Below, piece by piece: positions 310-27,188 of a stretch of 54,804 nucleotides of DNA. Every line of letters begins with the position of its first letter. The first letter of the stretch is position 1. The position numbers and the translations under genes were made by a program. Source of the DNA: a virus (lineage: Duplodnaviria > Caudoviricetes); IMG/VR virus record IMGVR_UViG_3300012920_000051, positions 1 to 54,804 of that record. One strand, 5' to 3'. The notes beneath the pieces were generated by a model that was not told the DNA's origin, searched no databases, and was given only the letters and a program-made list of their open reading frames with translations.

Positions 310-401
310 ATGGACGTATATGCGCCTCGCGTGTCATATATTTATATAGAATGTTGTTGAGCAGACTGCTCATGTAGATACCATCCTATTAGGAGGTGCT
401 C

Positions 402-2485: not shown

Positions 2486-2501
2486 TACACCTCATTTACA
2501 C

Positions 2502-2530
2502 TTGCTAAGAAAAATAGAATTATTTAACAT
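2502..2530 (+). promoter_or_regulatory. Promoter class A (sigma70-type): TTGCTA-N17-TAACAT
   Basis: One of 7 copies of TTGCTAAG with exact 17-nt spacing to a TAnnAT -10 box. Confidence 0.75.
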
Positions 2531-2566
2531 ATGTGTATGTTAAACCTTAACCTTATGTGTGATGAC

Positions 2567-2920: not shown

Positions 2921-2936
2921 GATTGGATTAACGCTG

Positions 2937-3665: not shown

Positions 3666-3678
3666 TTTAGGACAGAGC

Positions 3679-5637
3679 ATGTTAAAGAAGGTAAGCTTTA
3701 AGCTTAACGATGAATTTGTACTTTCTTACGCAGACAAGAAAGTCCCTTGGGGTCCTTTGGGCTATTTCGTATATAAGCGCACATACGCACGCAAAATCGA
3801 AGGCACAGACCGCACTGAAGAGTGGTTTGAAACTGTACGACGTGTCGTTGAAGGCACATACGCCCTTCAGCAGTCGCACTGCAAGACCATGAATCTCCGA
3901 TGGGATGCTGATAAATCTCTTCGATCTGCAGAGAAGATGTACGATAAGATCTTCAATATGAAATTCCTGCCTCCCGGTCGTGGCTTGTGGGCTATGGGTA
4001 CTGAGATGGTGTGGACAAAGGGTTCAGCAGCGCTGAACAACTGTGCCTTTATTAGCACCGATAACATTGAAGACGACCCTACCGCCCCCTTCACTTTCCT
4101 TATGGACATGAGCATGTTGGGTGTCGGTGTTGGCTCTGATACTCGCGGCAAGAACCGCGTTGTCGTTCAAGAGCCGAACATAACAGATGAGCCTTTTGTT
4201 GTTTCTGATGATCGAGAAGGTTGGGTTAATCTGATCCGTACTGTCATTGGAGCGTATTTTGGGCGAAATGATCTGCCCGCTGAGATCGACTACTCTGAGG
4301 TTCGCGCTTATGGCGAAGACATCAAGGGTTTTGGCGGCGTAGCGAGCGGGCCTGAGCCTTTGTCTCGTCTCGTAGACGACATTAAGCGCGTCCTAAATGA
4401 GCGTGTTGGGGGTGTGTTGAGCGGTGCCGATATTGTAGATATCCACAACTACATTGGTAAATGCGTTGTTGCTGGAAATGTGAGACGAACCGCTGAGATC
4501 ATGTTTGGTGATCCCGATGATACAGAGTTCCTTGATCTTAAGACAGACATTGATGCTCTAGGAGATCGTCGTTGGGCTTCAAATAACAGCGTATTTGCGT
4601 ATGTTGGAATGCCTTATGATGAGATTATTAAACGTGTCGCGAACAACGGCGAGCCTGGGTTTATCTACTTGGACAACGCTAAGCGTTTTGGTCGCCTAAT
4701 AGACGGCCCTAAAGAGAGCGACACTCGTGTCAAGGGTACTAACCCTTGTGGCGAGCAATTTCTTGAGAGCTTTGAGCTTTGTAATCTCGTTGAGACGTTC
4801 CCCGCGAACCACGATTCTCTAGAGGAATATCTTGAGACGCTGAAATACGCCTATCTGTACGGCAAGTCTGTGACCTTGATGCCTACTCATAATCAAGACA
4901 CGAACGCTGTGATGTTGAGGAATCGCCGTATTGGTGTTGGTATGAGTGGCATCGTGCAGGCGATCTCTAAATTTGGTCGTGAGAAATTCTTGTTCTTTGC
5001 GAATGAGGGCTATCGGATCATCCAAGACCTCGACACTAAATATAGTGAATGGTTATGCATTAGCCGATCTGTAAAGACCACGACCGTAAAACCAAGCGGT
5101 ACTGTCTCTCTCTTAGCGGGCGCGACTCCTGGGATTCACTATGACCACAGCGAGTATTACATCCGTAATGTCCGCTTATCCGAGGACTCTAAGCTTGTAC
5201 CGCCTTGTATAGAGGCAGGATATCCTGTTGAGCGTTGTCAATATCAGCCTGGATCTCTTGTCGTGTCTTTCCCTGTAAAGAGCGTCAACTTTGAGAAGTC
5301 TAAGAGTGATGTGACTGCGCTCGATCAGCTCTCGTTGATCCGCGATCTTCAGACGTATTGGTCGGACAACAGCGTCTCGTCTACGGTTACGTTTACTAAA
5401 GACGAGGTAGAATCTTTACCGGAGGCTCTCCGTATGTATGAGGAGTATCTCAAGAGCGTGTCGTTCCTGCCTATTAGCGATCACGGTTATGCACAAGCGC
5501 CGTATATTGAGATCACTAAGGAAGAATATGATGAGCTCTCCTCAAAGATCACTCCTCTTGACGTGCAGGATGGCCATGAGGTCATCGAACGCTTCTGCGA
5601 CGGAGATGGCTGTGATATCCCAATTGAAGGCAATTAA
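3679..5637 (+). CDS. nrdJ: Class II (adenosylcobalamin-dependent) ribonucleoside-triphosphate reductase
   Basis: PPGRGLW, NNCAF, VVAGNVRR, TNPCGEQ.LESFELCNL and TVKPSGTVS motifs; C-terminal FCDGDGC. Confidence 0.95.
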   Translation: MLKKVSFKLNDEFVLSYADKKVPWGPLGYFVYKRTYARKIEGTDRTEEWFETVRRVVEGTYALQQSHCKTMNLRWDADKSLRSAEKMYDKIFNMKFLPPGRGLWAMGTEMVWTKGSAALNNCAFISTDNIEDDPTAPFTFLMDMSMLGVGVGSDTRGKNRVVVQEPNITDEPFVVSDDREGWVNLIRTVIGAYFGRNDLPAEIDYSEVRAYGEDIKGFGGVASGPEPLSRLVDDIKRVLNERVGGVLSGADIVDIHNYIGKCVVAGNVRRTAEIMFGDPDDTEFLDLKTDIDALGDRRWASNNSVFAYVGMPYDEIIKRVANNGEPGFIYLDNAKRFGRLIDGPKESDTRVKGTNPCGEQFLESFELCNLVETFPANHDSLEEYLETLKYAYLYGKSVTLMPTHNQDTNAVMLRNRRIGVGMSGIVQAISKFGREKFLFFANEGYRIIQDLDTKYSEWLCISRSVKTTTVKPSGTVSLLAGATPGIHYDHSEYYIRNVRLSEDSKLVPPCIEAGYPVERCQYQPGSLVVSFPVKSVNFEKSKSDVTALDQLSLIRDLQTYWSDNSVSSTVTFTKDEVESLPEALRMYEEYLKSVSFLPISDHGYAQAPYIEITKEEYDELSSKITPLDVQDGHEVIERFCDGDGCDIPIEGN

Positions 5638-5643
5638 ATAAAT

Positions 5644-5672
5644 TTGCTAAGAATTGTGGATTCGCGTATTAT
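5644..5672 (+). promoter_or_regulatory. Promoter class A: TTGCTA-N17-TATTAT
   Basis: AAATAAATTTGCTAAGAATTGTGGATTCGCGTATTAT. Confidence 0.85.
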
Positions 5673-5690
5673 ATATACACGTTCAATGTG

Positions 5691-5719
5691 ACTTTTCTAT
5701 AACTCGCCTTGAACATGTA
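5691..5719 (+). promoter_or_regulatory. Motif B, degenerate copy
   Basis: ACTTTTCTATAACTCGCCTTGAACATGTA, preceded by TTCAATGTG as at the 16094 and 18467 copies. Confidence 0.65.
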
Positions 5720-5751
5720 TCTATAACCCTACTAACTCATTGGAGTTACTG

Positions 5752-6054
5752 ATGTCTAATACCGATAATCCACGTCGTTACGCCTTCCCTGTGGGGCAAA
5801 CCACTACTGATGGCAGAGATCTTGTCGCTGTTGATGAGCCTTGTGCAACTCAGAAGATGGAGCTTTTGTCTGAGGCGTTTGCTCGAGGTGGTATGGATGC
5901 TTACAACGAGCAGATGATGATTCTTAAGCGATACCCGCCCGTTGAGGTGCATGATCTCGACACAAACTCTCCGGCGTGTCGCGCCGCATACAAGGACTTC
6001 CACAAGATGCTGAACGAGTGTCCGGTCATCCGTCGTGCGATTACGGGTAAATGA
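5752..6054 (+). CDS. Hypothetical protein
   Basis: GGAG RBS before ATG 5752; follows promoter A. Confidence 0.7.
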   Translation: MSNTDNPRRYAFPVGQTTTDGRDLVAVDEPCATQKMELLSEAFARGGMDAYNEQMMILKRYPPVEVHDLDTNSPACRAAYKDFHKMLNECPVIRRAITGK

Positions 6055-6055
6055 T

Positions 6056-6430
6056 ATGAACTACGATCTTAAGAGGATGAACAACGCCGTTGGCGTCATC
6101 AACTTGTCGCAGGGCTACGCAGTAGACCAATATATCGAGGATAATTACTTATTAGACTCAATCATCTTCGCTAAGGGTCTTGCCTTCGCGATTAACGTCT
6201 CGACGCGCGTCCGGCTTGATGACATTGACGTGCCTGTCTACTCACACTTACAGGCGTTTCGATCAAAGGCTATACTTGAGCGCTTGCGAACATCTCAGAT
6301 TGACGCAGAGCTCGTCGATGTCGCGGAGCGCTCGGGGATGTGTGTATTTGACATTAAGCATATATACTCATTCATTAAGCGTAACTACAACGCTAAGAGT
6401 CAAAAATCATTCCTAGCAGGCTTAGCTTAA
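6056..6430 (+). CDS. Hypothetical protein
   Basis: ORF abutting the upstream stop. Confidence 0.7.
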   Translation: MNYDLKRMNNAVGVINLSQGYAVDQYIEDNYLLDSIIFAKGLAFAINVSTRVRLDDIDVPVYSHLQAFRSKAILERLRTSQIDAELVDVAERSGMCVFDIKHIYSFIKRNYNAKSQKSFLAGLA

Positions 6431-6522
6431 TTCTTCGAGACATACACACGCAACGTGTAGGCATACTACTAAGACAGTCTCGTATTAGAATTCAAATAAC
6501 GCTTATAAGCGCTATAATAAAT

Positions 6523-6551
6523 TTGCTAAGAAAATAGATTATCTGTAATAT
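6523..6551 (+). promoter_or_regulatory. Promoter class A: TTGCTA-N17-TAATAT
   Basis: Matches the class A consensus; hairpin CATGATCA-ATAA-TGATCATG at the predicted +1. Confidence 0.85.
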
Positions 6552-6597
6552 ACTTACATGATCAATAATGATCATGACCCTTTAATCTCTTGTTTTA

Positions 6598-7512
6598 ATG
6601 GAAACAACGATGCAAGAACAAAACACCCTTAACCTAAACGAGTTGTACGCCGACGCTAAGAGCGTTCGCGACGCTATTAAACAAAAGGTGGCGCACTCGC
6701 GCAATCCGATGATAGAGGTATTTCACGACCACTTTGAGATCGCACTTCGGACTCCACCAATTCTAGCCGACACTGGCTTTGAAAAACTTGGCGACATCAC
6801 CGCGTTCTCGGACGCGATGCTCGCAATCAAGGATATGTGTCCTGACTATTTCGACGTTGGATTCGCGATTAACTCAATTGGCGAGATCGTACTGTACTAC
6901 CGACCGAATGCCTTTTATGCCGGGAACACGATGGCGCAGATGGTCATAGAGTCATTCACCCCCGAGGACATCGAGATTCACGTCCTGAGAGAGAGTGTCA
7001 ATCGCTTTCAGCGCCACATGCGACGTCGCTTGACAAGCACACAGGTCCGTGTCGTTAACGAGCGTACGACTGCTTCTCGTAAGACTCAACATCTTCGCGT
7101 CACTGAGAAGACTCCCGCAATCTCAGTGCCTTTTGATTGCGGTGCTCGCACGTCACCCTATGGCCGCGATTATGTTGTGTTTAGCATGAACGCCGTATAC
7201 GCAGCTGAGAACTTCGACTTGGGTTACAATCTGTCGGAGCTGATTGACCTAACTCGCCAAGGCGTGATCTCATTCTTGAAGACAACTGATTCGACTTGGA
7301 TGTGGGCGCGCCAAGACGATGACTATCGGATTGCTCCTCTTTGCTACGAGATTGATTGGGATCTCGACGAGGAGGACTACGTTCACGCCAACGCGGGTGA
7401 ACCTCTCCCAAGATTCCTTGAGCGTGACAACCTTGAGACAGCGGATGACTTTGTTAACCGCATCACTGAGGAGTATGGCTACTGCGTCTCAGGCATTCAA
7501 CCTGTCGTATAA
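6598..7512 (+). CDS. Hypothetical protein
   Basis: 304-aa ORF after promoter A; no recognised motif. Confidence 0.8.
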   Translation: METTMQEQNTLNLNELYADAKSVRDAIKQKVAHSRNPMIEVFHDHFEIALRTPPILADTGFEKLGDITAFSDAMLAIKDMCPDYFDVGFAINSIGEIVLYYRPNAFYAGNTMAQMVIESFTPEDIEIHVLRESVNRFQRHMRRRLTSTQVRVVNERTTASRKTQHLRVTEKTPAISVPFDCGARTSPYGRDYVVFSMNAVYAAENFDLGYNLSELIDLTRQGVISFLKTTDSTWMWARQDDDYRIAPLCYEIDWDLDEEDYVHANAGEPLPRFLERDNLETADDFVNRITEEYGYCVSGIQPVV

Positions 7513-7521
7513 GGAGTTATT

Positions 7522-7827
7522 ATGACAGCATCTGCATACTTCCCCCGCGCTGAAGAGATTGCCTCTGAATATAAGGGCGCGAAGATTACCCGAATTGATA
7601 ACTATTGTGGCCGCACAGGGCCTCTTGGCAAGGCGCTGCGTATAACAGTTCCTCGTGTCAATGATGTTAAGTGTCCTATTAAGCGTCTCCAACACCCTCT
7701 GCTCTCAGAGCTCCGCACCGCTTACCCTAGAGATTACCACCATCATGGTTGCCTTCGTGTAAAGATCGATGATGAGAGCATCGTTTATCTGTCTTATAAG
7801 ACTTTTGTCCTCCACTTATCGTCATAG
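7522..7827 (+). CDS. Hypothetical protein
   Basis: AAGGAG RBS; 101 aa. Confidence 0.75.
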   Translation: MTASAYFPRAEEIASEYKGAKITRIDNYCGRTGPLGKALRITVPRVNDVKCPIKRLQHPLLSELRTAYPRDYHHHGCLRVKIDDESIVYLSYKTFVLHLSS

Positions 7828-7847
7828 CATTGACAAAGGAAATCGCA

Positions 7848-8108
7848 ATGGATCACGATTTTAGACTACCTGAAGAACATAAAGAGCTCTTGGCGTTAAT
7901 TAAGAAGAACAACAAGGTTCTTGAACTCCAGCAGATTCCTTATGGAGATAACGCTTTCTTGCTTCTTGGGGCGCTACGATTCAACCTAAAAAGGGGCGGA
8001 TGGCCGCGAGAAGACGTAGACAAGGCGGTTGAGCTCTGTATGACTGGAGACTATGAGCGACTCCAACACTTCGTAAGCGTTTGTCTGCTTCATCCCAAGA
8101 AGCACTAG
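7848..8108 (+). CDS. Small conserved phage protein (NAF.LLG....LKR.G...GDY type)
   Basis: AAGGA RBS; motif DNAFLLLGALRFNLKRGGW...MTGDYERL resembles a common small phage family. Confidence 0.7.
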   Translation: MDHDFRLPEEHKELLALIKKNNKVLELQQIPYGDNAFLLLGALRFNLKRGGWPREDVDKAVELCMTGDYERLQHFVSVCLLHPKKH

Positions 8109-8137
8109 ACTTATATAAAACTACCTCTGAATCCGTA
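8109..8137 (+). promoter_or_regulatory. Motif B copy
   Basis: ACTTATATAAAACTACCTCTGAATCCGTA, ending 10 nt before the ATG at 8148. Confidence 0.8.
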
Positions 8138-8147
8138 TGGACTAATA

Positions 8148-9131
8148 ATGCGTATACCAAGCAGAATGTTCTCTATCGACACAGAGCGCACGTACTTCTA
8201 TTTCCGTCTAGCCACAGGCACTTTGTCTGTCTCTGATGGAGACATCGTACATAGCGAGCCTGTCGATGACTTCCCTGATTTTCAGATAGCCCTCTCCCAT
8301 TTAGAATACACCCGCATACGAGCCTTGATTAAGGCCCACTCCCTCACACACATGTACCTTCAGCATCTCGACCCTGATAAGATGACCCTCGTTTCAGGTA
8401 CATACGAGATCGTCGTTGAAATATGCGGAGGAATCCGCGAATGGGATGTCACCCTTCCAGGTCTTCGGCGGCTACGAGATGACGCTAAGCCTTTCACGCT
8501 TGTTAACGCCCTAAAAGAGATTAAGCCTTATATATCTAAGGACTCGTCTCGTACACTTTTACAAGGCGTCAAGGTGGCTGATGGCTTTATTTATGCGACA
8601 GACGGCATTAAGCTTATTAGATGCCCTGTTGACGCAGACTACTCTCTGTATTTGACCGCTGATGGGGTCAAAGAGATCCTAAACATGGACCGGGCGCTCA
8701 TCTTAGAGCATGAGGATCTGTTTTTCATCTCAAACTTTAAGACTACTGTGATCGCGCATAAAGACGATGATCGTATTATGGAGTTCCCTCCCGTAGAGTC
8801 TCTCATTAAGATGTTCGACGACGATACTGAGCACCCAATAAAGAGCACAATCCGTAAATCATTTCTCGATTGTAGAGGCTCTGAGGACTCGATGCTCACC
8901 TACACGATAAATGAAGACGTTCATACTTTAACGTGGGGAGACGTTACTCGCCGTTATAAGACTAAGACCTCATCGGTGTTAACGCTTAAGGCCGACATGT
9001 CATTATTACCCAAGGATCACATCTCTAGGATCGTGACAACTCGCGTACATCTAGGTGACAAAGATCAGCCAAGGTTTGTCTTGTTTCAGACAGCCGAAAA
9101 CCGGACGATTGTTCTCGCCTGTTGGTGTTAA
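8148..9131 (+). CDS. DNA polymerase III beta-clamp-like protein (divergent)
   Basis: ISKDSSRTLLQGV...IYATDGIKL and EFPPVESLI match the DnaN central-domain pattern S.D..R..L.GV...ATDG.RL and (Y/F)P. Confidence 0.65.
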   Translation: MRIPSRMFSIDTERTYFYFRLATGTLSVSDGDIVHSEPVDDFPDFQIALSHLEYTRIRALIKAHSLTHMYLQHLDPDKMTLVSGTYEIVVEICGGIREWDVTLPGLRRLRDDAKPFTLVNALKEIKPYISKDSSRTLLQGVKVADGFIYATDGIKLIRCPVDADYSLYLTADGVKEILNMDRALILEHEDLFFISNFKTTVIAHKDDDRIMEFPPVESLIKMFDDDTEHPIKSTIRKSFLDCRGSEDSMLTYTINEDVHTLTWGDVTRRYKTKTSSVLTLKADMSLLPKDHISRIVTTRVHLGDKDQPRFVLFQTAENRTIVLACWC

Positions 9132-9139
9132 ATATAAAT

Positions 9140-9168
9140 TTGCTAAGAAAAATAGATTTTGTTATTAT
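9140..9168 (+). promoter_or_regulatory. Promoter class A: TTGCTA-N17-TATTAT
   Basis: Consensus match; hairpin GTGTGATT-AACA-AATCACAC at 9186-9205. Confidence 0.85.
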
Positions 9169-9243
9169 ATATGTATTAAATGATTGTGTGATTAACAAAT
9201 CACACGCCCCCCAATCACCATTAAATCTCAAAGGAGATTGACC

Positions 9244-9780
9244 ATGCGCCATCGCAGAGCACTGCAAATGCACTCTTTCGTTTACCCATCAAGCGGTGTA
9301 TCCGATAACGGCTTGCACATGATTGTTGGATATATGCACCCTGAGCTTGGGTATCTCAACAATCACCTTCATGCGAGGGCTAACACGCCTCTCGTCTTGA
9401 TCTCTACTGTGGTGGTTAACCCACAACCTTTGGTTGTCGCTCCCGACTTGGTGACGTCTGCGCCTTGGCACTCTTTCTCGACCATCATTACAGACCTGTT
9501 CATCAAGAATTTTGGTAATCCGCTCTTGAGCGGTCATACGCAGCGGAATCTTCTTACGCACAACTACAGGGTCACTTGTGAGGCACAGGCTGTCGAGGAC
9601 CACCCATTAGGTGGCGTGATCAACGCCCAATTTATGGGGTTCGTTCCGCAATATCGCGCCGCAGATAACTTTTTAGGTCTTGAGGAGTGTGACGAACCTT
9701 ATAGGCTTTACCGCGTCACGTTCGATGACTTTAGGCAGATCACCCTCGAGGAGCGTTCACTCCTAGACTTCCCATTCTAA
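9244..9780 (+). CDS. Hypothetical protein
   Basis: AAGGAG RBS; follows promoter A. Confidence 0.75.
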   Translation: MRHRRALQMHSFVYPSSGVSDNGLHMIVGYMHPELGYLNNHLHARANTPLVLISTVVVNPQPLVVAPDLVTSAPWHSFSTIITDLFIKNFGNPLLSGHTQRNLLTHNYRVTCEAQAVEDHPLGGVINAQFMGFVPQYRAADNFLGLEECDEPYRLYRVTFDDFRQITLEERSLLDFPF

Positions 9781-9816
9781 TCCCATTATCAGCATATCCA
9801 CACAAAGGCTACAACC

Positions 9817-10164
9817 ATGTTCCCATACAACATTAGAGGTATTGACCTCAACGCAGGCGATAAAATTTCAACACCGGACATCACATCTTCAAAGCCTAAA
9901 GTTGTTCGCGTCACTTATAAGAACATTCCGATTCGCGTTAAGATTAACAAGAATGGCGCAATTGGATGTCGCGACACTAATGAATGTTTTATCAAGGCGT
10001 TCTTCCCTGATTTCTATCAAGAGTATGTTGACGAACAAGAGTCACTTCGTGGCGTCATCTCTGAACTGAGGATTCGAATGGAGCTCCGCTCGTTGTTGAT
10101 TGAGATGGCCTTCAATGAGCCTAGGGCTGTGCTTAAGCATCTCCTTGAGGAGGATGCACGATGA
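9817..10164 (+). CDS. Hypothetical protein
   Basis: AAGG RBS; 115 aa. Confidence 0.7.
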   Translation: MFPYNIRGIDLNAGDKISTPDITSSKPKVVRVTYKNIPIRVKINKNGAIGCRDTNECFIKAFFPDFYQEYVDEQESLRGVISELRIRMELRSLLIEMAFNEPRAVLKHLLEEDAR

Positions 10165-10496
10165 GTGTTCTTAAGACCTGTGTCGATTGCGACCTTCCGT
10201 TCGCGACTTCCAACACAAGGGCGACACAATGTCTTCCTTGTTGGAAGAAGGATCGCGAATATGACATGAGCAAAGCAGATACCGCGCATATCTTGCTTCA
10301 GAATCATATGCGTAGGCTTATGCTGCTCTATGATCACGTTGAGAATACGCGCGCAAGATCTTCTAACTCAGGGTCTTCTCTCTCTGATAAGCAGATTAAG
10401 CGTTTACTGATCCTGTGTCATCCTGACAAGCACGACAACTCTGAGATGGCTACTGAGATGACTCAACTGCTGAATGGGATGCGTACTCCGCGTTAA
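10161..10496 (+). CDS. Zn-finger plus truncated J-domain-like protein
   Basis: CxxC...CxxC at the N-terminus; C-terminal IKRLLILCHPDKH...EMTQLLN with the HPD tripeptide; ATGA coupling and GGAGG RBS. Confidence 0.7.
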   Translation: MSVLKTCVDCDLPFATSNTRATQCLPCWKKDREYDMSKADTAHILLQNHMRRLMLLYDHVENTRARSSNSGSSLSDKQIKRLLILCHPDKHDNSEMATEMTQLLNGMRTPR

Positions 10497-10650
10497 CCGT
10501 TTACTGTGCCTTAGAGGGCATTATATGACGTAATAGGCCCCTATTTAGAGGTCTATTATGCTAATCAGGCTATTCTTGAAAACTCCTGAAAACTTGCCTG
10601 AAAAGCCCTTCTTCAATTATAGCGTTTGTTTCCTTTTCAATACTCAATGG

Positions 10651-10679
10651 AGTTATATAAAACTATGTCTGAACCTGTA
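10651..10679 (+). promoter_or_regulatory. Motif B copy overlapping a start codon
   Basis: AGTTATATAAAACTATGTCTGAACCTGTA contains the in-frame ATG at 10665. Confidence 0.8.
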
Positions 10680-11381
10680 ACACACAACGACTTTGAAGGT
10701 GCTTTTTCGCGCTTAGAGTCCATCGTGACCTTTGATGAGATACACAAAATCCTCTATGGAGACTTATCATTCGCGCAAGCGAGAGCATCAATTTTGAATC
10801 CCTATGAAGGTCATGTTATTCAGCTTAGAGGCAAATCTCGCTACCAATTTCACCCCGAGACATTGACGTGGGAGATCAACATTGAGGCCCCCGACGCCAA
10901 GAATCCCCTCACGATTGACGCGCCCCTAGCCCCCATTTCATCGACAAAACAGCCCTCCCCCTCCCACCACACTAGAGGACTATACTACCATAACAAAGTA
11001 GCGATGATCGCCGTCGCCTTACAAGCAACAAGCAAGCACCACAACATCAGAGAGATACACGTCGCCCTGAATGGAGCCCGCTTGAATCGCGCCCAAATAC
11101 CCCCCGGTATACCCAGAGTAATCATAAAGAACTCCCACTCCCCCCTGTACTCATTAAACGAAGCTATGAGACAACAACATAATGGGCAATATATTGATTC
11201 ATATGGCCTGTGTATGGCTTTCATGCTCAAGGCAGATCCCGATATAATAATAGGACTCAACTCCAATGACCAAGAAATTGCTACAAAACGGGCCTTGAAC
11301 CTGTCATGTAGACGGATTTTTGTACGTTCTGGGGCTTTTTTTGCTGATGGATCACCTGTTGCTGTGGCCCCTGAGCACTAG
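10665..11381 (+). CDS. Hypothetical protein
   Basis: Long ORF; start at 10647 or 10665 uncertain. Confidence 0.7.
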   Translation: MSEPVTHNDFEGAFSRLESIVTFDEIHKILYGDLSFAQARASILNPYEGHVIQLRGKSRYQFHPETLTWEINIEAPDAKNPLTIDAPLAPISSTKQPSPSHHTRGLYYHNKVAMIAVALQATSKHHNIREIHVALNGARLNRAQIPPGIPRVIIKNSHSPLYSLNEAMRQQHNGQYIDSYGLCMAFMLKADPDIIIGLNSNDQEIATKRALNLSCRRIFVRSGAFFADGSPVAVAPEH

Positions 11382-11734
11382 AGTTGTATTTACCCCCTAG
11401 AAAACGGACACCCAACCCTGTAACGCAGGTCATTTGGTGTGTGGCGCAGAGCGGATTCTTCAATGATTATAAGCACTTACGCCACATATTAGACCCAAGC
11501 GAAAGACCCGACCACCCATTGGCTACAGCAAAAGTTTGTATTTCCCCTAGGGGAAAAGCACACCACTGGTATAGATCCTTTATAAGGGTGGACACTACTT
11601 ACAGGCTCTGTGCCTTTTGTGTGGCGCAGAATAAGACCTGCGAACAGTGATCGGCCTGAGCGAAAGTTATTCGGCCACTACCCTAGACAAGAATCGACGA
11701 GGCCAAGATACAGTGACTAAGATAAGAAGCACAG

Positions 11735-11763
11735 AGTTTTAGAAAACTATGGTTGAATCTGTA
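11735..11763 (+). promoter_or_regulatory. Motif B copy (perfect palindromic arms AGTTTT-AG-AAAACT)
   Basis: AGTTTTAGAAAACTATGGTTGAATCTGTA. Confidence 0.8.
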
Positions 11764-11899
11764 TGGAGTATCGGCCTCTCAATACAGTATTTATGGCGTT
11801 GAATCGTGGCAACAAAAGCGCAATTTTGAGGTGCAAAATACAGGTTTTAAGATGCGGTGCATTACGCTTTTGAGCACCAAAAATAAATCGCTGGAGCAT

Positions 11900-11938
11900 G
11901 CAAAGAGGTTTGAAAAACGATACGGACTATGCTAATAT
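11900..11938 (+). promoter_or_regulatory. Promoter class C: TTGAAA-N17-(TGn)TAATAT with AACGATAC in the spacer
   Basis: GCAAAGAGGTTTGAAAAACGATACGGACTATGCTAATAT; near-identical copy at 13829. Confidence 0.8.
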
Positions 11939-12002
11939 ACTATTGTGTGCGCCCATGCGCCCACGCCCCGCAACCCCCGAAAACACCAAGAAGGACATGT
12001 TG

Positions 12003-15224: not shown

Positions 15225-15597
15225 ATCGCTCCCCCTAGTGATCCTCTCCTGTACCATAGGATGCACTCCCCGCACCGAGATGATTTGTTGCCAACGCCTT
15301 CAGGGGCAAACGCAGTTTATCAAATCTCATGTGATCGGGGGGAACATCAAGCCGAGATTCAACCGAATCACCGACTCGGCGGTACGCGCGTACTGCAGAC
15401 GCACCTCCCCGAAGGCAGTCTGCTACACATTGGAGGTCGCGCTACAGCGCTATCCCGAAGGGCGTCCTCGCGAATACGGAGAGCTCGTATTTGGGATCTA
15501 CACACTGAGAAACTGCCTGTACTGCAAGACAGTCACGCTCTGCGAAGGTGATGTCGAACGCTTAGAGTGTCCACCCACAGACGAAATCGTAGAGTGA
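15205..15597 (+). CDS. Hypothetical Cys-rich protein, possibly exported or a lipoprotein
   Basis: Hydrophobic LPLVILSCTIGC near a TTG start; start uncertain. Confidence 0.45.
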   Translation: MTRLFCRSLPLVILSCTIGCTPRTEMICCQRLQGQTQFIKSHVIGGNIKPRFNRITDSAVRAYCRRTSPKAVCYTLEVALQRYPEGRPREYGELVFGIYTLRNCLYCKTVTLCEGDVERLECPPTDEIVE

Positions 15598-15603
15598 CTT
15601 AAG

Positions 15604-15640
15604 AGCCTGTCGCGAAAGAGCAATCGCGATGGGCTTTTTC
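15604..15640 (+). terminator. Rho-independent terminator
   Basis: AGCCTGTCGCGA-loop-TCGCGATGGGCT followed by TTTT, right after the 15597 stop. Confidence 0.75.
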
Positions 15641-15719
15641 GTAAGCTGCGCGCGCGTGTAAACTCGGGTCGAGATCTCGGGGCGAGCCTGATTCCTGTGG
15701 CTGTAGACAACAACTACGG

Positions 15720-16050
15720 CGAAGTGCTATTAGACGAAGCTAATAAGCAACACACAAAGTGACAAGAAAAGCGCAAAGCGACTTGGCTAAACGGTTATCT
15801 ACAAGCGAAAGATCAAAGCGAAAGATCGAAAGCTACAGGTGGCGGACCCTAGCGAAAGTGCTTGGAACGAGAACGAGCGCAAACCGCCATAAGCGAGGTT
15901 TTCGCAAAGACGAGCTCTACAAGCATTTTGAACAGCATATACAGCGCATCTTACGAGCGACCAAAGCGCTTACTACGAGCGACTTGCTTCTTTAAGGCAA
16001 GCGATCCTGCTTCCCTAGCCAAGCTGTGCTTGTGATGAGCCGAGCGTTGC
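15720..16050 (+). repeat. AGCG(A)-rich non-coding spacer 1
   Basis: About 13 AGCG (8 AGCGA) in about 280 bp on the + strand, counted by eye. Confidence 0.7.
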
Positions 16051-16084
16051 CTGTTATTGGTATCAGCCGGTTCTGTCGTACTGA

Positions 16085-16142
16085 TTCAACGTGACTTTTC
16101 TAAAACTTTTTTATTGCGCTCGTCTTCTGTGTGTAATACTAT
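16085..16142 (+). promoter_or_regulatory. Sigma70-type promoter TTGCGC-N17-TACTAT with upstream motif-B core
   Basis: TTCAACGTGACTTTTCTAAAACTTTT upstream element shared with 18458; -35 at 16114-19, -10 at 16137-42. Confidence 0.7.
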
Positions 16143-16230
16143 TGACACGATGTTGTGATAACATCGCTACACTTGAAACCGTGTCTCTTGTGACACACAT
16201 ACACCGCGCTTATGCGCCCAGGGTAACGCT

Positions 16231-17151
16231 ATGAACGCTTATACTTTCCCTCGTCACTTTGCTGATCCATCACGCGATGAAATCAATGTTCTCTTGACTG
16301 ATGATCATCTACGCGCTGATCTTGATGATAACGCTCGTCTTCGCATGTTGTCTAATGACTTGTCACCGTTCTTTGTTGATAACATCTCTGATCTTTATGA
16401 TGATGTGCCAACCTTTCACACCGGTAACGATACATATACTCCTGATTTCTCTAATCTGCTTAAATATATTGACATGCTTGATGCTGTGATCACTGATTAT
16501 TTCTTTGATGATCCTATGTTGATTGATCTCGCTATTCGTGAATGTAATTACGCATTACCACGACGATCAACAAACTTGATTCATTCTCGCTCTGATCTTT
16601 CGCGCGTCTATGCTCGTCTGTATGCTCACTATGTCACCTTCTCAAATTCAACGATTACTCATGATCGTGTGTTTAAACAAATCAATCACATGATCGAATA
16701 CGCGCGCGACCATATGCCGAACGCTCACTTCATTATCACCGATGATTGCATGCAATCGCTTCAACTTCCATCCTTGATGCATTTGATTAACTATTGCGCT
16801 CTCACACCTTCGCGTATCATCTCGCATCACTTGATCCCGCGATCTGTTAACACTGAATCATTTCTTGATATCGTGCTCTACTGCAACTCACATTTTGATA
16901 TGCCTCGATACCTCTATACACGCTATAATGATCTATATGAACAATCACATCATATTGACTTTGATGATCTCCGCTCAATTAATGTTTATATGACTGCATA
17001 TACTACGCTATCACCGCTTTCTATGCGATACCCTGCCAACAATCATCACGCTCACAATAATGTTGATCTTAACACCGATCATACACACCAATACTACAAC
17101 ACCCTACCTATGCTTGATTCCGCTCCTAATGTCTGTAAATTCACGCGCTGA
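16231..17151 (+). CDS. Hypothetical protein encoded without AG and with one GG (306 aa; 1 Gly, 0 Trp; D/H/N/Y/L-rich)
   Basis: 921-bp ORF with promoter and AGGG RBS-like island at 16220-23. Confidence 0.8.
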   Translation: MNAYTFPRHFADPSRDEINVLLTDDHLRADLDDNARLRMLSNDLSPFFVDNISDLYDDVPTFHTGNDTYTPDFSNLLKYIDMLDAVITDYFFDDPMLIDLAIRECNYALPRRSTNLIHSRSDLSRVYARLYAHYVTFSNSTITHDRVFKQINHMIEYARDHMPNAHFIITDDCMQSLQLPSLMHLINYCALTPSRIISHHLIPRSVNTESFLDIVLYCNSHFDMPRYLYTRYNDLYEQSHHIDFDDLRSINVYMTAYTTLSPLSMRYPANNHHAHNNVDLNTDHTHQYYNTLPMLDSAPNVCKFTR

Positions 17152-17349
17152 TACTCTCCAGCCGGGTAACGATACGCACTAAAACACTCTCTAACCACGT
17201 TTAACACTCTAACCTATGTGTTGATACACGTCGCGACCGAAACGCACTACACGCGCTAATCTCGCGACGATTTGAACACTCCCCATCTGACCACTTGACC
17301 GCGATTGAACCCACCCGACCCCCAACCGCGCTAAAGCACCCTCTCCCCT

Positions 17350-17993
17350 GAGGATTGCAAGCCAAGCCTCTCCTATGAGGGGCTTAAGTCAAGCGACTAA
17401 TTAAAGATATCAAGGTAGTAGAACAAAGAGGAAGGCGATTGATTAGCGAAGCGATTGCTTTGACCGGTGGGCGTGTGCCGTAAGCGAAGAAAAAATTTTT
17501 ACGAGCGTTAGCTGTATCTCGATTTCGACCGAGATAGATCGCGATTCAAATCTGGATGCCTCGATCATGATCGCGAGGTGTGCTCGGAAGAACCACAAGA
17601 GGTACCTTGATGACCGACAAGTGAAACGAGAAAGACGCTACGGTTGCATCCTGATGTTTCCTAGCACTATCGAGCAAGAACCAAAAGCGACGCGCTAAAC
17701 TCGCCAAAGTGACTCGCGAACCCCGAACAAGTGAAGCGCTTTCGCCTCGCGAACAAGAATCGAGAGCGCCTCTATGAGCGCCCTAGCTAAAAAATGTAGC
17801 GACACAAGCCAAGCCAAAACTTTACTACGGCAAGGCCACATAGCGACAAAATAAGTGGCCCGAGGTGATCAGCGACAATAGTACCTGGGTGGTACTCTTT
17901 GTTGACGTTTCCTAGGATAACCTTAGCGAAAGTTGCGCTTAAGGTGAGGTAACATCGGCTAGGCCGAAAGGCGAGACTCGGGACGAGCGAAAG
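17350..17993 (+). repeat. AGCG(A)-rich non-coding spacer 2
   Basis: About 14 AGCG (10 AGCGA) in about 640 bp, counted by eye; no convincing ORF; starts with hairpin AAGCCTCTC-CTAT-GAGGGGCTT at 17364-85. Confidence 0.65.
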
Positions 17994-18042
17994 TTGCGAA
18001 CGCAATCTTTCGTATAAATCGCGATTTTTCGCGATTTTTGCT

Positions 18043-18308
18043 GTTCGCCCTGACCGAACGATCACCCCCTCATCGTTCGATCAAACCGAATTGTCAAATA
18101 ATCGAAATAATGCTTGACATGCGTTCCGGACGTGTAACGCTATGCAACCTTGTACAACCTTCCCCGCCTCTCTAAATATCGTTCTGTTTAACCGAACGAT
18201 TAACCTTGTACAACCTTGTACACCGTTTTGTCCGCCTCGTGAAATTTCGCGTATCGTCTCCATGAAATTTCGTGTGTCGTCTCCATGAAATTTCGTGTGT
18301 CGTCTCCA
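18043..18308. repeat. Left repeat cluster: GTTCG-N7-CGAAC palindromes, AACCTTGTAC repeats and a 3x23-bp tandem repeat
   Basis: Palindromes near 18043, 18074 and 18178; AACCTTGTAC at 18146, 18202 and 18212; TGAAATTTCGTGTGTCGTCTCCA-type unit x3 at 18240-18308. Confidence 0.85.
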
Positions 18309-18457
18309 CTCGATTCCACGCGCGCGACATCATCACGCTCTGATCATTCACGGGCTCGTATCGTTACGCTCTTGTGTCGATTCTACGCGCCACCTGTAAA
18401 TTTTTTTCAAACTGAATTATGTAACGATTACGAACACTTACGCTGCGTCATTACACA

Positions 18458-18512
18458 TTCAACGTCACTTTTCTAAAACTTTTCTTGACCTCCTCGATCA
18501 ATCTGCTATTGT
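18458..18512 (+). promoter_or_regulatory. Sigma70-type promoter TTGACC-N16-(TGn)TATTGT with upstream motif-B core
   Basis: TTCAACGTCACTTTTCTAAAACTTTT element as at 16085; hairpin TGTGATC..GATCACA at the predicted +1. Confidence 0.7.
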
Positions 18513-18573
18513 GCCTCATGTGATCGCTGTTGATCACACACCAAACCATTTGACTCCACAGGGAGACAACGAT

Positions 18574-19275
18574 ATGACATTCACTCTGAATGATCTTACT
18601 ACCCTCGCAACCGCTAAACGCAACCGCGCCACCTCAATCGCTCCTGACGCTCACACCATCGACGTCACCACGCTACGCTCCGATGCTCCTCTGATCACTG
18701 ATCACCCGCTCGCTACGTTCATCAATGACCTGTCAAACGCTCGTACTGTGCTCGCTAACTGCACGTCATACGATGACCGCATGATTGTCTCTGATCACGC
18801 CTCAATGTACCTCGACAACGACCGTAAATGCTTTGTGCTGTGCCTCGATGCTCACGACGCTAAACGCGCTCCTCGTACCTCTGGACATAACGTTGTGACT
18901 CTCACCGCCGACCGCGCTACGCTCAAACGCTCTGACATGCGCCACGCCGTTAACGCCTTCGTTTCGATCGCTCACGTGTCGATCATGCTTGACCGCTTTG
19001 CATCCTACCTCACGCATCCTGTGACTGCTATCGCCTTCACACGTTCACGCGCTCATGATCTCACCTCTAACGTGATCCGATATGATCACACTCACTACTC
19101 ACCTGTAACTCTCGCTCACGCGACCGCTTGCGCTGTCGTGATCCTCTCTGATCACAACCACGACACATACGCGCCCGCCTTCAACGCATGCCTTGATATG
19201 CTGAACGCATCTGATCACGCGCTCACCATCACCTGTGACGCTTACCCTGACTCTGTGCGCGCTCCTCTCGCTTGA
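18574..19275 (+). CDS. Hypothetical protein encoded without AG and with one GG (233 aa; 1 Gly; no Glu, Gln or Trp)
   Basis: AGGGAG RBS at 18560-65 is one of the few RG islands; promoter upstream and terminator downstream. Confidence 0.8.
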   Translation: MTFTLNDLTTLATAKRNRATSIAPDAHTIDVTTLRSDAPLITDHPLATFINDLSNARTVLANCTSYDDRMIVSDHASMYLDNDRKCFVLCLDAHDAKRAPRTSGHNVVTLTADRATLKRSDMRHAVNAFVSIAHVSIMLDRFASYLTHPVTAIAFTRSRAHDLTSNVIRYDHTHYSPVTLAHATACAVVILSDHNHDTYAPAFNACLDMLNASDHALTITCDAYPDSVRAPLA

Positions 19276-19352
19276 CGCGCTGACTTGACCTGACATGTGA
19301 TTGCGTGACTTGACTCCACATCATCGACCGCGATCACCACGCTCTACGCCTT

Positions 19353-19388
19353 GAAACGCGACGCTCAAAACGTCGCGTTTCTTGTTTG
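19353..19388 (+). terminator. Rho-independent terminator
   Basis: Perfect 11-bp stem GAAACGCGACG-CTCAAAA-CGTCGCGTTTC followed by TTGTTTG. Confidence 0.7.
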
Positions 19389-19731
19389 TGTGCTCTCCAG
19401 GAAGACACCGATATGATGCTGTGATCTCTGCGCAGCCGGGTATCGTTACGCGCTTGATCCTTTGTTTTGAATCCTCCCCCTACCTCCTATGCTCTTTGTG
19501 TGTGTCTCACCTCTTCGCCTCGTGTCTTGTGATGATGTGTCGTGTGCCTCACGCGCGCTCTAATGCCTCTCTATGCTCGCTTGCGCTCTCTACCTATACC
19601 TACCCCTATGTTGACTTGCTTACGTTCCTCTGTGTGCAATCTCGCGCGTCTTGTGTTTCCACGTTGCGCGCGTGTGTGCTATCCGCCGTGTCTCGTCTCA
19701 CCTTGCTTGACCTCTCGCGTTGGTATCGTTG

Positions 19732-19895
19732 CGCGTGAAATCTCCACGCGCGACCGCGTGAAATCTCCACGCCTCAACCTTGTACAACCTTGTACACGCG
19801 CGACCGCCCGACCGCGCGACCGTTCGCTCAAACCGAACGATGAAAAAACCGAAAAAAAATCAAAAAAAACCTGTACAACCTTTGTACAACGATAC
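19732..19895. repeat. Right repeat cluster: 23-bp-period repeat, AACCTTGTAC repeats, GTTCG-N7-CGAAC palindrome and A-tracts
   Basis: CGCGTGAAATCTCCACGC at 19732 and 19755; AACCTTGTAC at 19776 and 19786, variants at 19868 and 19877; palindrome near 19821; A-tracts at 19843-69. Confidence 0.85.
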
Positions 19896-20014
19896 TGTGA
19901 ACGCGCGTTCACACTCGCGAATTCCTGAAAATTTCTGAAAAAAACCCGAAATCACGAACCGCGGAGCCCTGACCGCCTTTACGACGGAGTGAATTTCCCT
20001 AGACTCGGACAAAA

Positions 20015-20043
20015 AGTTTCCGAAAACTACCGTTGAATCCGTA
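20015..20043 (+). promoter_or_regulatory. Motif B copy
   Basis: AGTTTCCGAAAACTACCGTTGAATCCGTA. Confidence 0.8.
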
Positions 20044-20125
20044 TAAGAGACAGAAATAACTCTTGATAAATGGCGATTTGTTTGGTATTTTACATATACA
20101 CAAAGATCGCAAATAACTGCAAGAC

Positions 20126-20452
20126 ATGGAGCAATACATGACAAGACTATTCCTGTTAAAAACCAAAGGCAAAGACCACACGGGCAAGCTGTGGGGCCAC
20201 TCTAAGATGCACCTTATTACTTTCGCGACTGATCTTTTACGAGAGGGTCACATATTAGAGGCTACGATCTACGAGGCGATCTTTGAGCATGACTCGTCGT
20301 TGCGTCAACTGTTGGTGTCTGTGTTGAACGGCGAATCAAAACCCACACACAACCAAGTGTGGCGTTCTACGGCCTCTGATCACGAGGCGCAGCTACAAGA
20401 CGTACAAGACATTCAATCCGTACAAGACATTCAATCCGTGGAGCCATCATGA
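20126..20452 (+). CDS. Hypothetical protein with a C-terminal 18-bp tandem duplication (VQDIQS x2)
   Basis: ORF coupled to rusA by ATGA; repeat at 20401-20436. Confidence 0.65.
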   Translation: MEQYMTRLFLLKTKGKDHTGKLWGHSKMHLITFATDLLREGHILEATIYEAIFEHDSSLRQLLVSVLNGESKPTHNQVWRSTASDHEAQLQDVQDIQSVQDIQSVEPS

Positions 20453-20961
20453 GTGACCTTGATCTTCGATTCTTTGCGTTGGGCGCACCGCGAGGCAAAC
20501 AACGCCCTAGAATGGCGCGTCGTGGGCGCAAGACCATCACATATACGCCTCAAGAAACCCTCGAATATGAGCGTAGAATTCGGGAGGCTTTTCTGTTGGC
20601 TTCTTTACACGATCAACTGCCCTTACGGGGGCCACTGTGGGTAGATGTGATCGCGATCTTCCCGCGGACTAAGGCGCTCTCCTTTCGATATAAGAACGGC
20701 ACATACAAGCACAGCACCTCGCGGATATTGCACGCTGTGAAGCCGGACGAAGACAACATACGGAAGTGCGTCCTAGATGGGATTAATGATTACATCGAGG
20801 GTGGTGATTCTCGCGTTGTGGGCGGTACAACCTTGAAGGTGTATGCGTCAATCGACGAGGAGTGTGGCACGCTTGTTAGAGTCCGCAATGCCGAGAGCCT
20901 TGAGGCGCTTGGCGCGCTCTACGATTTCGGCTGGGGTGCGGGCTCCATTGATGCGCCCTAA
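20449..20961 (+). CDS. rusA: RusA-family Holliday junction resolvase
   Basis: P.GKQRPR, YTP.ET..YE, KPDEDNIRKCVLDGI and GDSRVV motifs. Confidence 0.88.
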   Translation: MSDLDLRFFALGAPRGKQRPRMARRGRKTITYTPQETLEYERRIREAFLLASLHDQLPLRGPLWVDVIAIFPRTKALSFRYKNGTYKHSTSRILHAVKPDEDNIRKCVLDGINDYIEGGDSRVVGGTTLKVYASIDEECGTLVRVRNAESLEALGALYDFGWGAGSIDAP

Positions 20962-26340: not shown

Positions 26341-27186
26341 ATGCCATCTGCGCCTAAAGGGACAGGTCTGCGCGTCAAAGGCGACCAAGCGAGTTACCGA
26401 TCAATGTCGGGTAGAACGGAGTATGTCTCTGTAAACTCTGCGGACTACCGTACTCTGCCTAGAGTAGATAACCCCAATACTGTAGACAATTTAGTGCGCG
26501 CTTCTAAGGTTCGCACACGTATTCGGCGCGAGGTTATTCTTCCTTTATTAAAGGACCTCACTGTGTTGACCGCTTACGCTAAGCTCTCGGAGTCATACAC
26601 CTCTGAGATGCTGTTGTTCCAAGAGGACATCATTAAGGCAGTGTCACGACATCTTAAGCAACAATATCGCTTGCTCCTTAATATAGACAAACAGATAGAC
26701 CGCTCTGATCCCGCACACTCTCGGCGCGTAAATCTAGCGATGGGTCAAATCAAGGCAGAGATTGAGTTTGTAAATGGGAGAGCAAGCGGGCTATATAATC
26801 GCACCCTCCGCGCACTCTCTCAGGAGATATCTAAGGACAAGCCGGACGCTATTCGCATCTCTAGGCTATTAGCGCCCGCTACATATCAGAACGTAAACCA
26901 TCACTCCCTCTCTAGGGGATTGGCTTCTATACAGCGTAGCTCTTTACAACGTGCTAGATTCAACGCACAATATCAGCTTTATGCTGAGGCCAATGTTCAA
27001 TATGTACAATGGCGATTATCAGGCAGCCATAAAGACTATGGCGGATCTGAGATATGTGAGGTCCTCGCAAACACGACAGGAAACCTCGCCTCACGCGCTA
27101 GAAGCGATAGAGGTCTTTACTTGTTATCTGAAGCGCCTCAACCTCCTCATCCAAACTGCATGTGCTCCTTAGTGCCTACAAAATAA
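26341..27186 (+). CDS. Head morphogenesis / minor capsid protein (Mu gpF, SPP1 gp7-like)
   Basis: C-terminal WRLS..H....IC...PPHPNCMCSLVP; position after the portal. Confidence 0.8.
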   Translation: MPSAPKGTGLRVKGDQASYRSMSGRTEYVSVNSADYRTLPRVDNPNTVDNLVRASKVRTRIRREVILPLLKDLTVLTAYAKLSESYTSEMLLFQEDIIKAVSRHLKQQYRLLLNIDKQIDRSDPAHSRRVNLAMGQIKAEIEFVNGRASGLYNRTLRALSQEISKDKPDAIRISRLLAPATYQNVNHHSLSRGLASIQRSSLQRARFNAQYQLYAEANVQYVQWRLSGSHKDYGGSEICEVLANTTGNLASRARSDRGLYLLSEAPQPPHPNCMCSLVPTK

Positions 27187-27188
27187 AT

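Follow-up and report, generated by a model that had tools for sequence, protein, structure and literature searches.

The first-step-transfer DNA of phage T5 lacks EcoRI sites and the EcoP15I sites of phage T7 are strand-oriented, two cases in which DNA exposed before counter-defences is kept free of target words. In phage T4, RegB cuts early messages at GGAG and so switches them off. Engineered mRNAs without ACA reportedly escape MazF, the whole message being devoid of the recognition word, and the antiphage ADP-ribosyltransferase CmdTAC is said to modify mRNA at GA dinucleotides and to block translation. Phage DpdA enzymes are reported to act in contexts of 2-3 nucleotides (nt), GA and GGC for CAjan and GA for iggy (PMC7544227, PMC10484667). 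Here we describe two kilobase-scale blocks of the IMG/VR virus record IMGVR_UViG_3300012920_000051 that have been purged of AG and GG on the + strand only. The record is one viral contig of 54,804 nt, which was taken whole as the window analysed. Its phage is called G000 below, and coordinates refer to it unless another source is named. RG denotes AG or GG on the + strand, CY denotes CC or CT, and expected numbers were calculated from the local mononucleotide composition. The two blocks and their open reading frames (ORFs) are as follows.

16071-17335, + strand: RG-free block 1, 1265 nt, with 7 RG against 78 expected.
16231-17151, + strand: ORF-A, encoding an acidic orphan of 306 amino acids (pI 5.55), with 1 RG against 53 expected in 921 nt.
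17994-19963, + strand: RG-free block 2, 1970 nt, with 15 RG against 149 expected.
18574-19275, + strand: ORF-B, encoding an orphan of 233 amino acids, with 1 RG against 50 expected in 702 nt; ribosome-binding site (RBS) AGGGAG at 18560-18565.

The locus resembles each of the described systems in part. Like the ACA-less messages, its putative messages lack the word almost throughout (a single RG each in the 921 nt of ORF-A and the 702 nt of ORF-B, none in the leaders described below); those messages, however, were engineered against a 3-nt word at no cost in amino acids, whereas the present purge is natural, concerns a 2-nt word, extends into non-coding DNA and has removed Gly and Trp, and its cognate enzyme is hypothetical. 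As with RegB, a purine-G-rich word coincides with the Shine-Dalgarno of early genes, but the putative early messages here avoid all RG except at Shine-Dalgarno sites, and no PHROGs match to a RegB-like family was found among the ORFs scanned (some small ORFs lay outside the scan) in this record, which CheckV rates as ~56% complete. T5 and T7 avoid specific words of 5-6 nt; homologues of the T5-like pre-early proteins A1, A2 and Dmp were not found, ORF-A and ORF-B matching no PHROGs or Pfam family. CmdTAC is a precedent for a defence that reads a bare dinucleotide in mRNA, but its GA is enriched in the blocks and nothing is known to connect it with this phage or the host. DpdA enzymes likewise act on G in a short context; their known contexts depend on the 3' neighbour, and the available part of PMC7544227 describes no purged region. 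Literature searches found no phage for which a strand-specific purge of a dinucleotide has been described, in agreement with an initial annotation of this stretch, made from the sequence alone, which knew of no such phage system, and with the controls on phages BCD7, T5 and T7 given below.

Block 1 contains 2 AG against 49.3 expected and 5 GG against 29.1, and block 2 contains 5 AG against 79.1 and 10 GG against 69.9. The two blocks together thus hold 22 RG where ~227 were expected; the initial annotation had counted the same 22 by eye against a rough expectation of ~200. Mononucleotide skew is not the explanation, since the expectations already use the local composition. When 200-nt windows were moved in steps of 100 over all 54,804 nt, those with at most four RG lay solely within the two blocks (median 22), and no window of the whole record had as few as four CY; the sliding-window count proposed with the initial annotation therefore finds the purge unique to the blocks. 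The longest RG-free runs within the blocks are 736, 515 and 318 nt, and elsewhere they do not exceed 83 nt; the longest CY-free run of the whole record is 88 nt. CC and CT are still present on the + strand of the blocks (counts of 56, 119, 130 and 190), and the purge is therefore strand-specific. GA is raised, as are CG and TG (observed/expected ratio, O/E, 1.5-1.7), and AA is normal, so that the four dinucleotides which the initial annotation had described as remaining common (GA, AA, CC and CT) do so. In a scan of all 16 dinucleotides AG and GG alone were flagged, and trinucleotides revealed no additional strong constraint under a first-order model. The signature of classical restriction-site avoidance, specific and mostly palindromic words of 4-8 nt depleted equally on both strands, was not found, only AG and GG being affected, and on the + strand only. 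The block edges are sharp, again as described at the outset. The G lost from the blocks has been made up by C and T and not by A (A 0.21-0.27 against 0.26 genome-wide), which argues against G-to-A hypermutation.

The sequence itself is supported by a second assembly, produced with a different assembler from run X1 (possibly the source sample), whose contigs agree with the record and span 15500-20500 with a lone break at a 23-nt tandem repeat near 18254-18306. These contigs differ from the record by four base substitutions and one 1-nt insertion, and three more variants were found in a second run; none of them creates an RG. Run X2 gave two small pieces only.

We searched for relatives with the large terminase of G000 and obtained eight loci in IMG/VR and eight in metagenomes, the metagenome contigs belonging to the same lineages; the same query had no match in bacterial genomes. 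One relative, G001, has a terminase 89% identical to that of G000, and its phage is present in two further records at 99.94%. G001 has the same layout: an RG-free block with an ORF of 260 amino acids, an RG-normal, purine-rich spacer of 659 nt, and a second RG-free block comprising an ORF-B homologue of 226 amino acids, a terminator and a long non-coding end. In a BLASTN comparison of G000 with G001 the flanks are 67-77% identical, and within the region two promoter pieces alone align. The sequence of the blocks has therefore turned over between the two phages while the rule was kept. Over the four blocks of both phages (6,162 nt) only 15 AG and 30 GG remain, AG being purged harder. G003, with a terminase at 46% identity, starts within a partly purged stretch (AG 31/86 and GG 34/62, observed/expected). 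In G000, in G001 and in the partly purged G003 alike, it is the sense strand that has been purged. The contig of G005 (79%) starts just to the right of where the block would end. No such block exists in G004 (64%, rated complete, 104.6 kb, 32% G+C) or G002. Bacillus phage BCD7, the closest cultured terminase relative (41% identity), has no purged block either; in 1-kb windows its sense strand nowhere falls below an RG O/E of 0.79. Positions 1-12000 of T5 and all of T7 contain no window purged of any dinucleotide, and their RG-free runs are at most 81 nt; the RG O/E is 0.66-0.92 in the early genes of T7 and T5 (0.71-0.92 in the T5 pre-early genes).

Several observations made during these comparisons stand apart from the purge. 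The partly purged early ORF of G003 opens with tandem repeats encoding the highly acidic DDDDATN (locus L136, 1-150), and its product may be a DNA mimic. In T7 (L166), two of the three longest RG-free runs (56 and 59 nt, within 927-1043) are located in the opening part of gene 0.3 (ocr), which is expressed before all others; this gene as a whole is mildly depleted (RG O/E 0.74), and the runs at its start may be due to chance. Low-C stretches in loci L003, L004, L006 and L007 were rejected as plain G/C skew and not an RG rule. A 16-nt promoter word of the region occurs in 120 unrelated AT-rich contigs of IMG/VR, which served as background.

The rule overrides the needs of the encoded proteins. 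The products of ORF-A and ORF-B each contain one Gly and no Trp, and that of ORF-B has neither Glu nor Gln, as initially noted, with the correction that ORF-B starts at 18574 and not at 18571. The sole RG of each ORF is formed by the first two bases of its only Gly codon. Trp is absent from all four products of the two phages and Gly occurs once or twice (0.3-0.9%), compared with 6.6% Gly and 0.9% Trp in 23 other genes; Glu, Gln and Lys are scarce, and His, Asp, Asn, Thr and Cys are in excess. Codon junctions of the type purine|G number 0 in ORF-A against 18.4 expected and 0 in ORF-B against 16.4; over the four ORFs the numbers are 0, 0, 1 and 2 against 16-19 expected. Third codon positions are pyrimidines in 73-78% of cases against 58% in the 23 other genes. 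All four non-coding parts are depleted as well (observed/expected RG: 3/12.4 upstream of ORF-A, 3/12.8 in the tail after ORF-A, 7/39.7 in the 5' part of block 2 and 7/59.9 in its 3' part), which bears out the claim that coding and non-coding DNA are both covered. The empty purine|G junctions and the equally clean non-coding parts indicate that the rule bears on a dinucleotide and not on codons. The initial annotation had proposed strong selection against a dinucleotide on one strand, and the persistence of the rule in G001, at codon junctions, in non-coding DNA and in the contig variants sustains this: these comparisons indicate that the sense strand is under strong selection against 5'-purine-G-3', and that this selection is continuing, since the rule was kept while the block sequence turned over.

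Both ORFs appear to be real genes, on the evidence of frame length beyond that of shuffled sequence and of the conservation of the ORF-B protein. The stop-free frame of ORF-A extends over 324 codons, when the maximum in 500 dinucleotide-preserving shuffles was 191, and the frame length of ORF-B was matched in one of 500 shuffles. ORF-B is homologous to the G001 ORF (E 1e-10, 30-37% identity). No family was found for either ORF in Pfam or PHROGs, and queries with both recovered no relatives in IMG/VR. ORF-B matched only its own cluster in a collection of 5.8 billion proteins, and is also present on a contig of 92.9 kb; ORF-A, compared with 1.84 billion representatives, matched itself and, on composition, three giant proteins. 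AlphaFold2 models from two-sequence alignments reached pLDDT values of 41.7 and 33.0 (33 for ORF-A), too poor for a fold search, and the ESM Atlas gave no usable match. This pattern points to two orphan genes that are fast-evolving.

The surviving RG of the two phages fall into 22 island groups, all of which were listed. Read by eye, about 17 of the 22 share GG, GGG or GGAG followed after 0-6 nt by AACGAT or a close variant. In nine islands an ATG follows, at the starts of the four ORFs and of several mini-ORFs, and the AACGATG spacer is also found ahead of ordinary genes elsewhere. Since ~17 of the 22 islands are RBS-like and share AACGATG with ordinary genes, these motifs indicate that RG survives where ribosome binding demands it and hardly anywhere besides. 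Inside the ORF-B homologue of G001 (L001, 5955-5975 and 6234-6250) there are two internal AGGGTAACGATG motifs, each an RBS with an out-of-frame ATG; they open overlapping frames of ~20 and ~47 codons, which may be overlapping small genes.

The rule is also followed outside the blocks, in the leaders of one promoter class. This TTTGCTAAG class consists of a conserved box, AAATTTGCTAAGAA, then ~13 nt, TATTAT and a hairpin-forming leader, and has six sites in G000. It appears to resemble the T4 middle (MotA-box) promoters, where a box ~12-13 nt ahead of a sigma-70 -10 element stands in for the -35 element, which suggests a switch of the sigma-appropriation type.

Starts at ~5640-5643, 6519-6522, 9136-9139, 21673, 27185-27188 and 43985-43988, + strand: the six TTTGCTAAG-class promoters of G000 (example, 5643-5742; a variant lies at 2498).
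3181, 3730, 6285, 17595 and 23094, in the coordinates of G001: the TTTGCTAAG-class promoters of that phage.

Of the five longest RG-free runs that G000 has beyond the blocks, four (83, 77, 76 and 66 nt) lie directly downstream of AAATTTGCTAAGAA-TATTAT promoters, and the fifth, of 70 nt, likewise follows such a promoter, that at 21673. In G001 all five of the longest outside runs (88, 84, 79, 70 and 56 nt) are downstream of these promoters. The 11 leaders (six of G000, five of G001) amount to 712 nt with 72 G, every one of them preceded by a pyrimidine; they are RG-free from about -20 to the Shine-Dalgarno, which is the first RG in 9 of the 11. For comparison, RG accounts for 43% of G in 12 other upstream regions of G000 and for 53% in 20 upstream regions of BCD7. 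Conserved AG dinucleotides of these promoters lie upstream of about -20, so that RG appears to be tolerated in promoter DNA that is not transcribed. Leaders of G004 are similar, and are less telling in its AT-rich DNA.

The remaining features of the region are the following.

15777-16004, + strand: AGCGA array of eight repeats, the last three spaced by 22 nt, left of block 1, with normal RG content.
16079-16110, + strand: conserved 32-nt element upstream of ORF-A, 91% identical to 18452-18483 and followed by an A/T-rich tract.
17152-17335, + strand: C-rich, G-poor tail after ORF-A (C 0.36, G 0.16), with one RBS-like island at 17160-17165.
17336-17993, + strand: RG-normal spacer of 658 nt, purine-rich and non-coding, with 89 RG against 99.5 expected and 10 AGCGA copies (17392-17990).
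18016-18037, + strand: terminator-like hairpin with a T run, at the start of block 2.
18146-18308, + strand: cluster of TTGTACAA palindromes with 10-nt phasing (18146-18233), then three 23-nt tandem repeats.
18485-18512, + strand: sigma-70-type promoter of ORF-B (TTGACC, 16-nt spacer, TATTGT with TG), with the 32-nt element at 18452-18483 just before it.
19353-19391, + strand: intrinsic terminator after ORF-B, an 11-bp stem and a T run.
19392-19963, + strand: RG-free non-coding 3' part of block 2, with repeats and an A-rich end.
19776-19797 and 19867-19882, + strand: second TTGTACAA cluster, so that the two clusters flank ORF-B.
20011-20050, + strand: forward copy of a late-promoter-like element, just outside block 2.
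289, 8117, 10659, 11743, 20023, 27344, 32870, 34559, 39046 and 44946, + strand: forward copies of AAAACTAYNNTTGAATCTGTAW, before genes.

The 32-nt element corresponds to a variant, in reversed orientation, of the AAAACTAYNNTTGAATCTGTAW element that recurs through the genome. Some 10 forward copies of AAAACTAYNNTTGAATCTGTAW are located just upstream of other genes (11 matches in all against 0.01 expected), and AAAACTAYNNTTGAATCTGTAW is probably a late or middle promoter. The segments 20011-20050 and 16072-16111 form a 40-nt inverted pair that brackets the whole region. The 32-nt element and an A/T-rich tract stand before each gene, with a good sigma-70 promoter after them for ORF-B and for both G001 genes, that of the ORF-A counterpart being TTGACA-17-TATAAC; the promoter of ORF-A itself is non-canonical in G000 and its position is presumed. 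G001 has a similar tail after its ORF-A counterpart (C 0.37, G 0.13), and such a C-rich tail is a possible Rho-dependent stop. The TTGTACAA clusters of G001 are at the two matching places (L001, ~5440-5520 and 6915-7000); they look like operator-like arrays that could loop out ORF-B. Searched as a double word, TTGTACAA returned G001 again and eight contigs without an RG purge, one of them with two marginal low-CY windows. The 3' part of block 2 includes an RBS-like island with a 3-codon mini-ORF (19413-19424) and islands at 19434-19439 and 19722. Ahead of each block is an array of short AG-containing repeats, AGCGA in G000 and AAGTA/GCAAGT in G001 (L001, 3377-3540 and 4684-5149), which are probably protein-binding sites; all RG-containing repeat arrays are outside the blocks. 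The spacer had no Rfam match, and its candidacy as a structured RNA was rejected (z = -3.6 in G000, +0.9 in G001); its pairing with the blocks shows a weak excess. Apart from one chance-level snoRNA match, Rfam and tRNA scans were empty, and a megablast search with the region found nothing similar among 50,697 phage records.

Nearly every gene of the record is on the + strand. The recognised genes encode PhoH, ThyX, ribonucleotide reductase, a clamp-like protein and RusA; the large terminase, portal, major head protein, tail sheath, and baseplate hub and wedge; an amidase; and, on the - strand, an Rz-like spanin. Such a gene set, with tail sheath, baseplate and spanin, indicates that this is a contractile-tail phage of a Gram-negative host. 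The phage is uncultured, and its record comes from, or is at least present in, a marine metagenome; none of the public runs listed as carrying it is an RNA run. Family scans gave no match for most ORFs of the replication side. An ORF of more than 1334 amino acids at 50801-54802, after the baseplate genes, has no family match and probably encodes a tail fibre; since it runs off the end of the record, the contig must be cut short there. The whole genome is rich in GATC, with 352 copies where 198 are expected, and the excess is greater in the two blocks (17 copies for 4.3 expected, and 21 for 7.0); a Dam-positive host or the usage of Asp codons may lie behind it.

The purge cannot stem from some physical property of the duplex, since AG/CT and GG/CC steps are plentiful when the other strand is read. 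What reads the rule must therefore see one strand with its polarity, as RNA, as single-stranded DNA or through a tracking enzyme. Among these, RNA is favoured because the sense strand is purged in every case, because untranslated leaders elsewhere follow the rule, because RG-containing protein-site arrays sit in seemingly untranscribed spacers, because the exceptions are ribosome-binding sites, and because so nearly absolute a purge suggests that a single site ruins the molecule, as with a nuclease. Our preferred reading, held with a confidence somewhat short of even, is that selection acts at the RNA level, the first transcripts made by the host polymerase being invisible to an activity that reads purine-G. 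It takes up the RNA branch of one of the three causes suggested in the initial annotation, an enzyme attacking RG/CY, which the RBS-like exceptions and the RG-free leaders favour. We regard as possible, and as slightly more tentative, the fuller proposal that an RNA-targeting nuclease or modifier reading purine-G, serving immunity or shut-off, exists in marine bacteria or their phages, and that this phage lineage rewrote its first-expressed genes and exposed untranslated RNA in an alphabet of 14 dinucleotides.

On this RNA-level reading the region, to judge from its promoters only, would be an early module of two orphan genes and regulatory DNA transcribed by host RNA polymerase, with the whole blocks presumably transcribed. 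Its transcripts, and the leaders of the other promoter class, would be without RpG, and an activity on single-stranded RNA would find no site in them. Candidates for such an activity are an endoribonuclease specific for a dinucleotide and an enzyme that modifies RNA, serving either the defence of the host or host shut-off by the phage itself. The retained RpG would be Shine-Dalgarno sites, which are indispensable and would be covered by the bound ribosome, and proteins nearly devoid of Gly, Trp, Glu, Gln and Lys would be tolerated as the cost. As precedents in kind, bacterial RNase toxins with cleavage motifs of low information are on record (PMC8546651). The E. coli RNase toxins that were checked were rejected as the agent, none of them being RG-specific.

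Several points weigh against this reading. Literature searches found no RpG-specific RNase or RNA modifier. The most serious point is that ~70-150 nt upstream of the ORF-A promoter region, ~500 nt upstream of the ORF-B promoter and ~570 nt past the intrinsic terminator are RG-free as well; transcription of these parts is only presumed, and their purge would fit a cause at the DNA level better. RG abounds in the coding parts of every other gene, so that the activity would have to spare translated RNA or be neutralised early, an added assumption. The leaders were measured up to their first RG, which makes that result partly circular, its weight coming from the repeated location and from the controls. 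The examples comprise two full cases and one partial one. Finally, the ~44% of the genome that lies outside the record may hold genes that bear on the cause.

Modification of the phage DNA is an unlikely alternative that would account for the rule in promoter-flanking and non-coding DNA. The phage would modify G in RG (or C in CY), for example to a 7-deazaguanine, and the genes read first would be without a modifiable site on one strand; in the mirror form, all G would be in modifiable YG. Modification was first suggested as a block to host RNA polymerase, and BCD7 provides a lead, since it carries a 757-amino-acid TGT/DpdA-like transglycosylase gene together with FolE, QueC, QueE and QueD (L163, 10327-15799), and its DNA is probably 7-deazaguanine-modified. 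The unseen ~44% of the genome leaves room for such genes, and ORF-B also lies on the 92.9-kb contig. Against this, BCD7 itself has no purged block, and PF01702 (TGT/DpdA) had no match in G000 (E up to 1, in the ~56%-complete record) or in G001-G005, a search confined to that family. Host polymerases transcribe heavily modified phage DNA such as that of T4, and a modification does not predict leaders that are RG-free exactly up to the Shine-Dalgarno. The 2-3-nt contexts of phage DpdA enzymes lend the idea some plausibility, but the reported motifs, GA and GGC, depend on the 3' neighbour and are not RG (PMC7544227, PMC10484667), and GA is enriched in the blocks.

A hazard to single-stranded DNA, which we consider improbable to a like degree, would likewise explain strand specificity and the coverage of non-coding DNA, and the 40-nt inverted elements that bracket the region exactly speak in its favour. 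The agent could be a frequently cutting CY/RG nickase, a primase of the DnaG type (template 5'-CTN/CCN, primers pppAG/pppGG) or a toxin that modifies single-stranded DNA where highly active genes expose their non-template strand. DnaG primers do start with AG or GG, and chlorovirus nickases have strand-specific 3-nt sites (CCD, RAG). The surviving RG islands would, however, still be struck, no nuclease or primase gene was recognised among the ORFs scanned, and neither the leaders of other promoters nor the RBS-like exceptions are explained. For a primase, the third of the causes first suggested, the dinucleotide logic fits and the leaders do not, and the benefit of blocking priming over 1-2 kb is hard to see. 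DarT1, the known G-directed ADP-ribosyltransferase of single-stranded DNA, was rejected as the agent, no consensus motif being reported for it (PMC11543638).

Tuning of translation seems a little less probable than either of these. Every trinucleotide of AGGAGG contains AG or GG, and the removal of Shine-Dalgarno-like words would let ribosomes land only at the true starts of the first mRNAs, which suits both the RBS-like nature of the RG that are left and the leaders that are RG-free up to the Shine-Dalgarno. An isolated AG, as in CAGC, cannot usefully pair with the anti-Shine-Dalgarno, yet AG (15 left) was purged harder than GG (30 left). The gain would not be commensurate with the loss of Gly and Trp and of most of the Lys, Glu and Gln, and the early genes of T7 and T5 are only mildly RG-poor, as the O/E values given above indicate.

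We find it very hard to credit evasion of type III restriction, whose enzymes require a pair of asymmetric sites in inverse orientation; a strand without RG would force most short asymmetric motifs into one orientation in the DNA that enters first, much as the uniform direction of its EcoP15I sites protects T7 from that enzyme. The contigs of G005 and G003 begin at or inside the block and might mark a genome end, and terminase relatives such as Streptomyces phage BRock presumably have long terminal repeats; but we estimate that the constraint would reach only ~70% of asymmetric 5-6-mers, no terminal repeat at double depth is apparent from the contigs (depths 16.3 and 15.1), and the leaders are unexplained. 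Least credible of all is an origin in biased mutation or hypermutation, such as G-to-A changes at RG on the non-transcribed strand (a G that follows a purine is the preferred target of mutation by alkylating agents), or in an artefact of assembly or sequencing, since A is not raised in the blocks and C and T are instead, the ORFs are open, the edges are sharp, the RBS sites are spared, and two phages and the contigs of an independent assembler agree.

If the purge can be taken at face value, a very strong and undescribed selective agent has left its mark here; it reads two bases on one strand, and costs the phage so much that two proteins have been stripped of Gly and Trp and each codon junction is constrained. 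Enzymes have been traced from such footprints before, as with restriction-site avoidance, and strand-specific dinucleotide-free runs offer a simple scan for hidden 'alphabets' in all viral genomes. The case shows how far a constraint at the nucleotide level can push proteins, and it could supply expression cassettes that are naturally invisible to a nuclease. Should the cause instead be the context of a DNA modification or a rule of priming, the purge would still be a new principle in the design of phage early genes.

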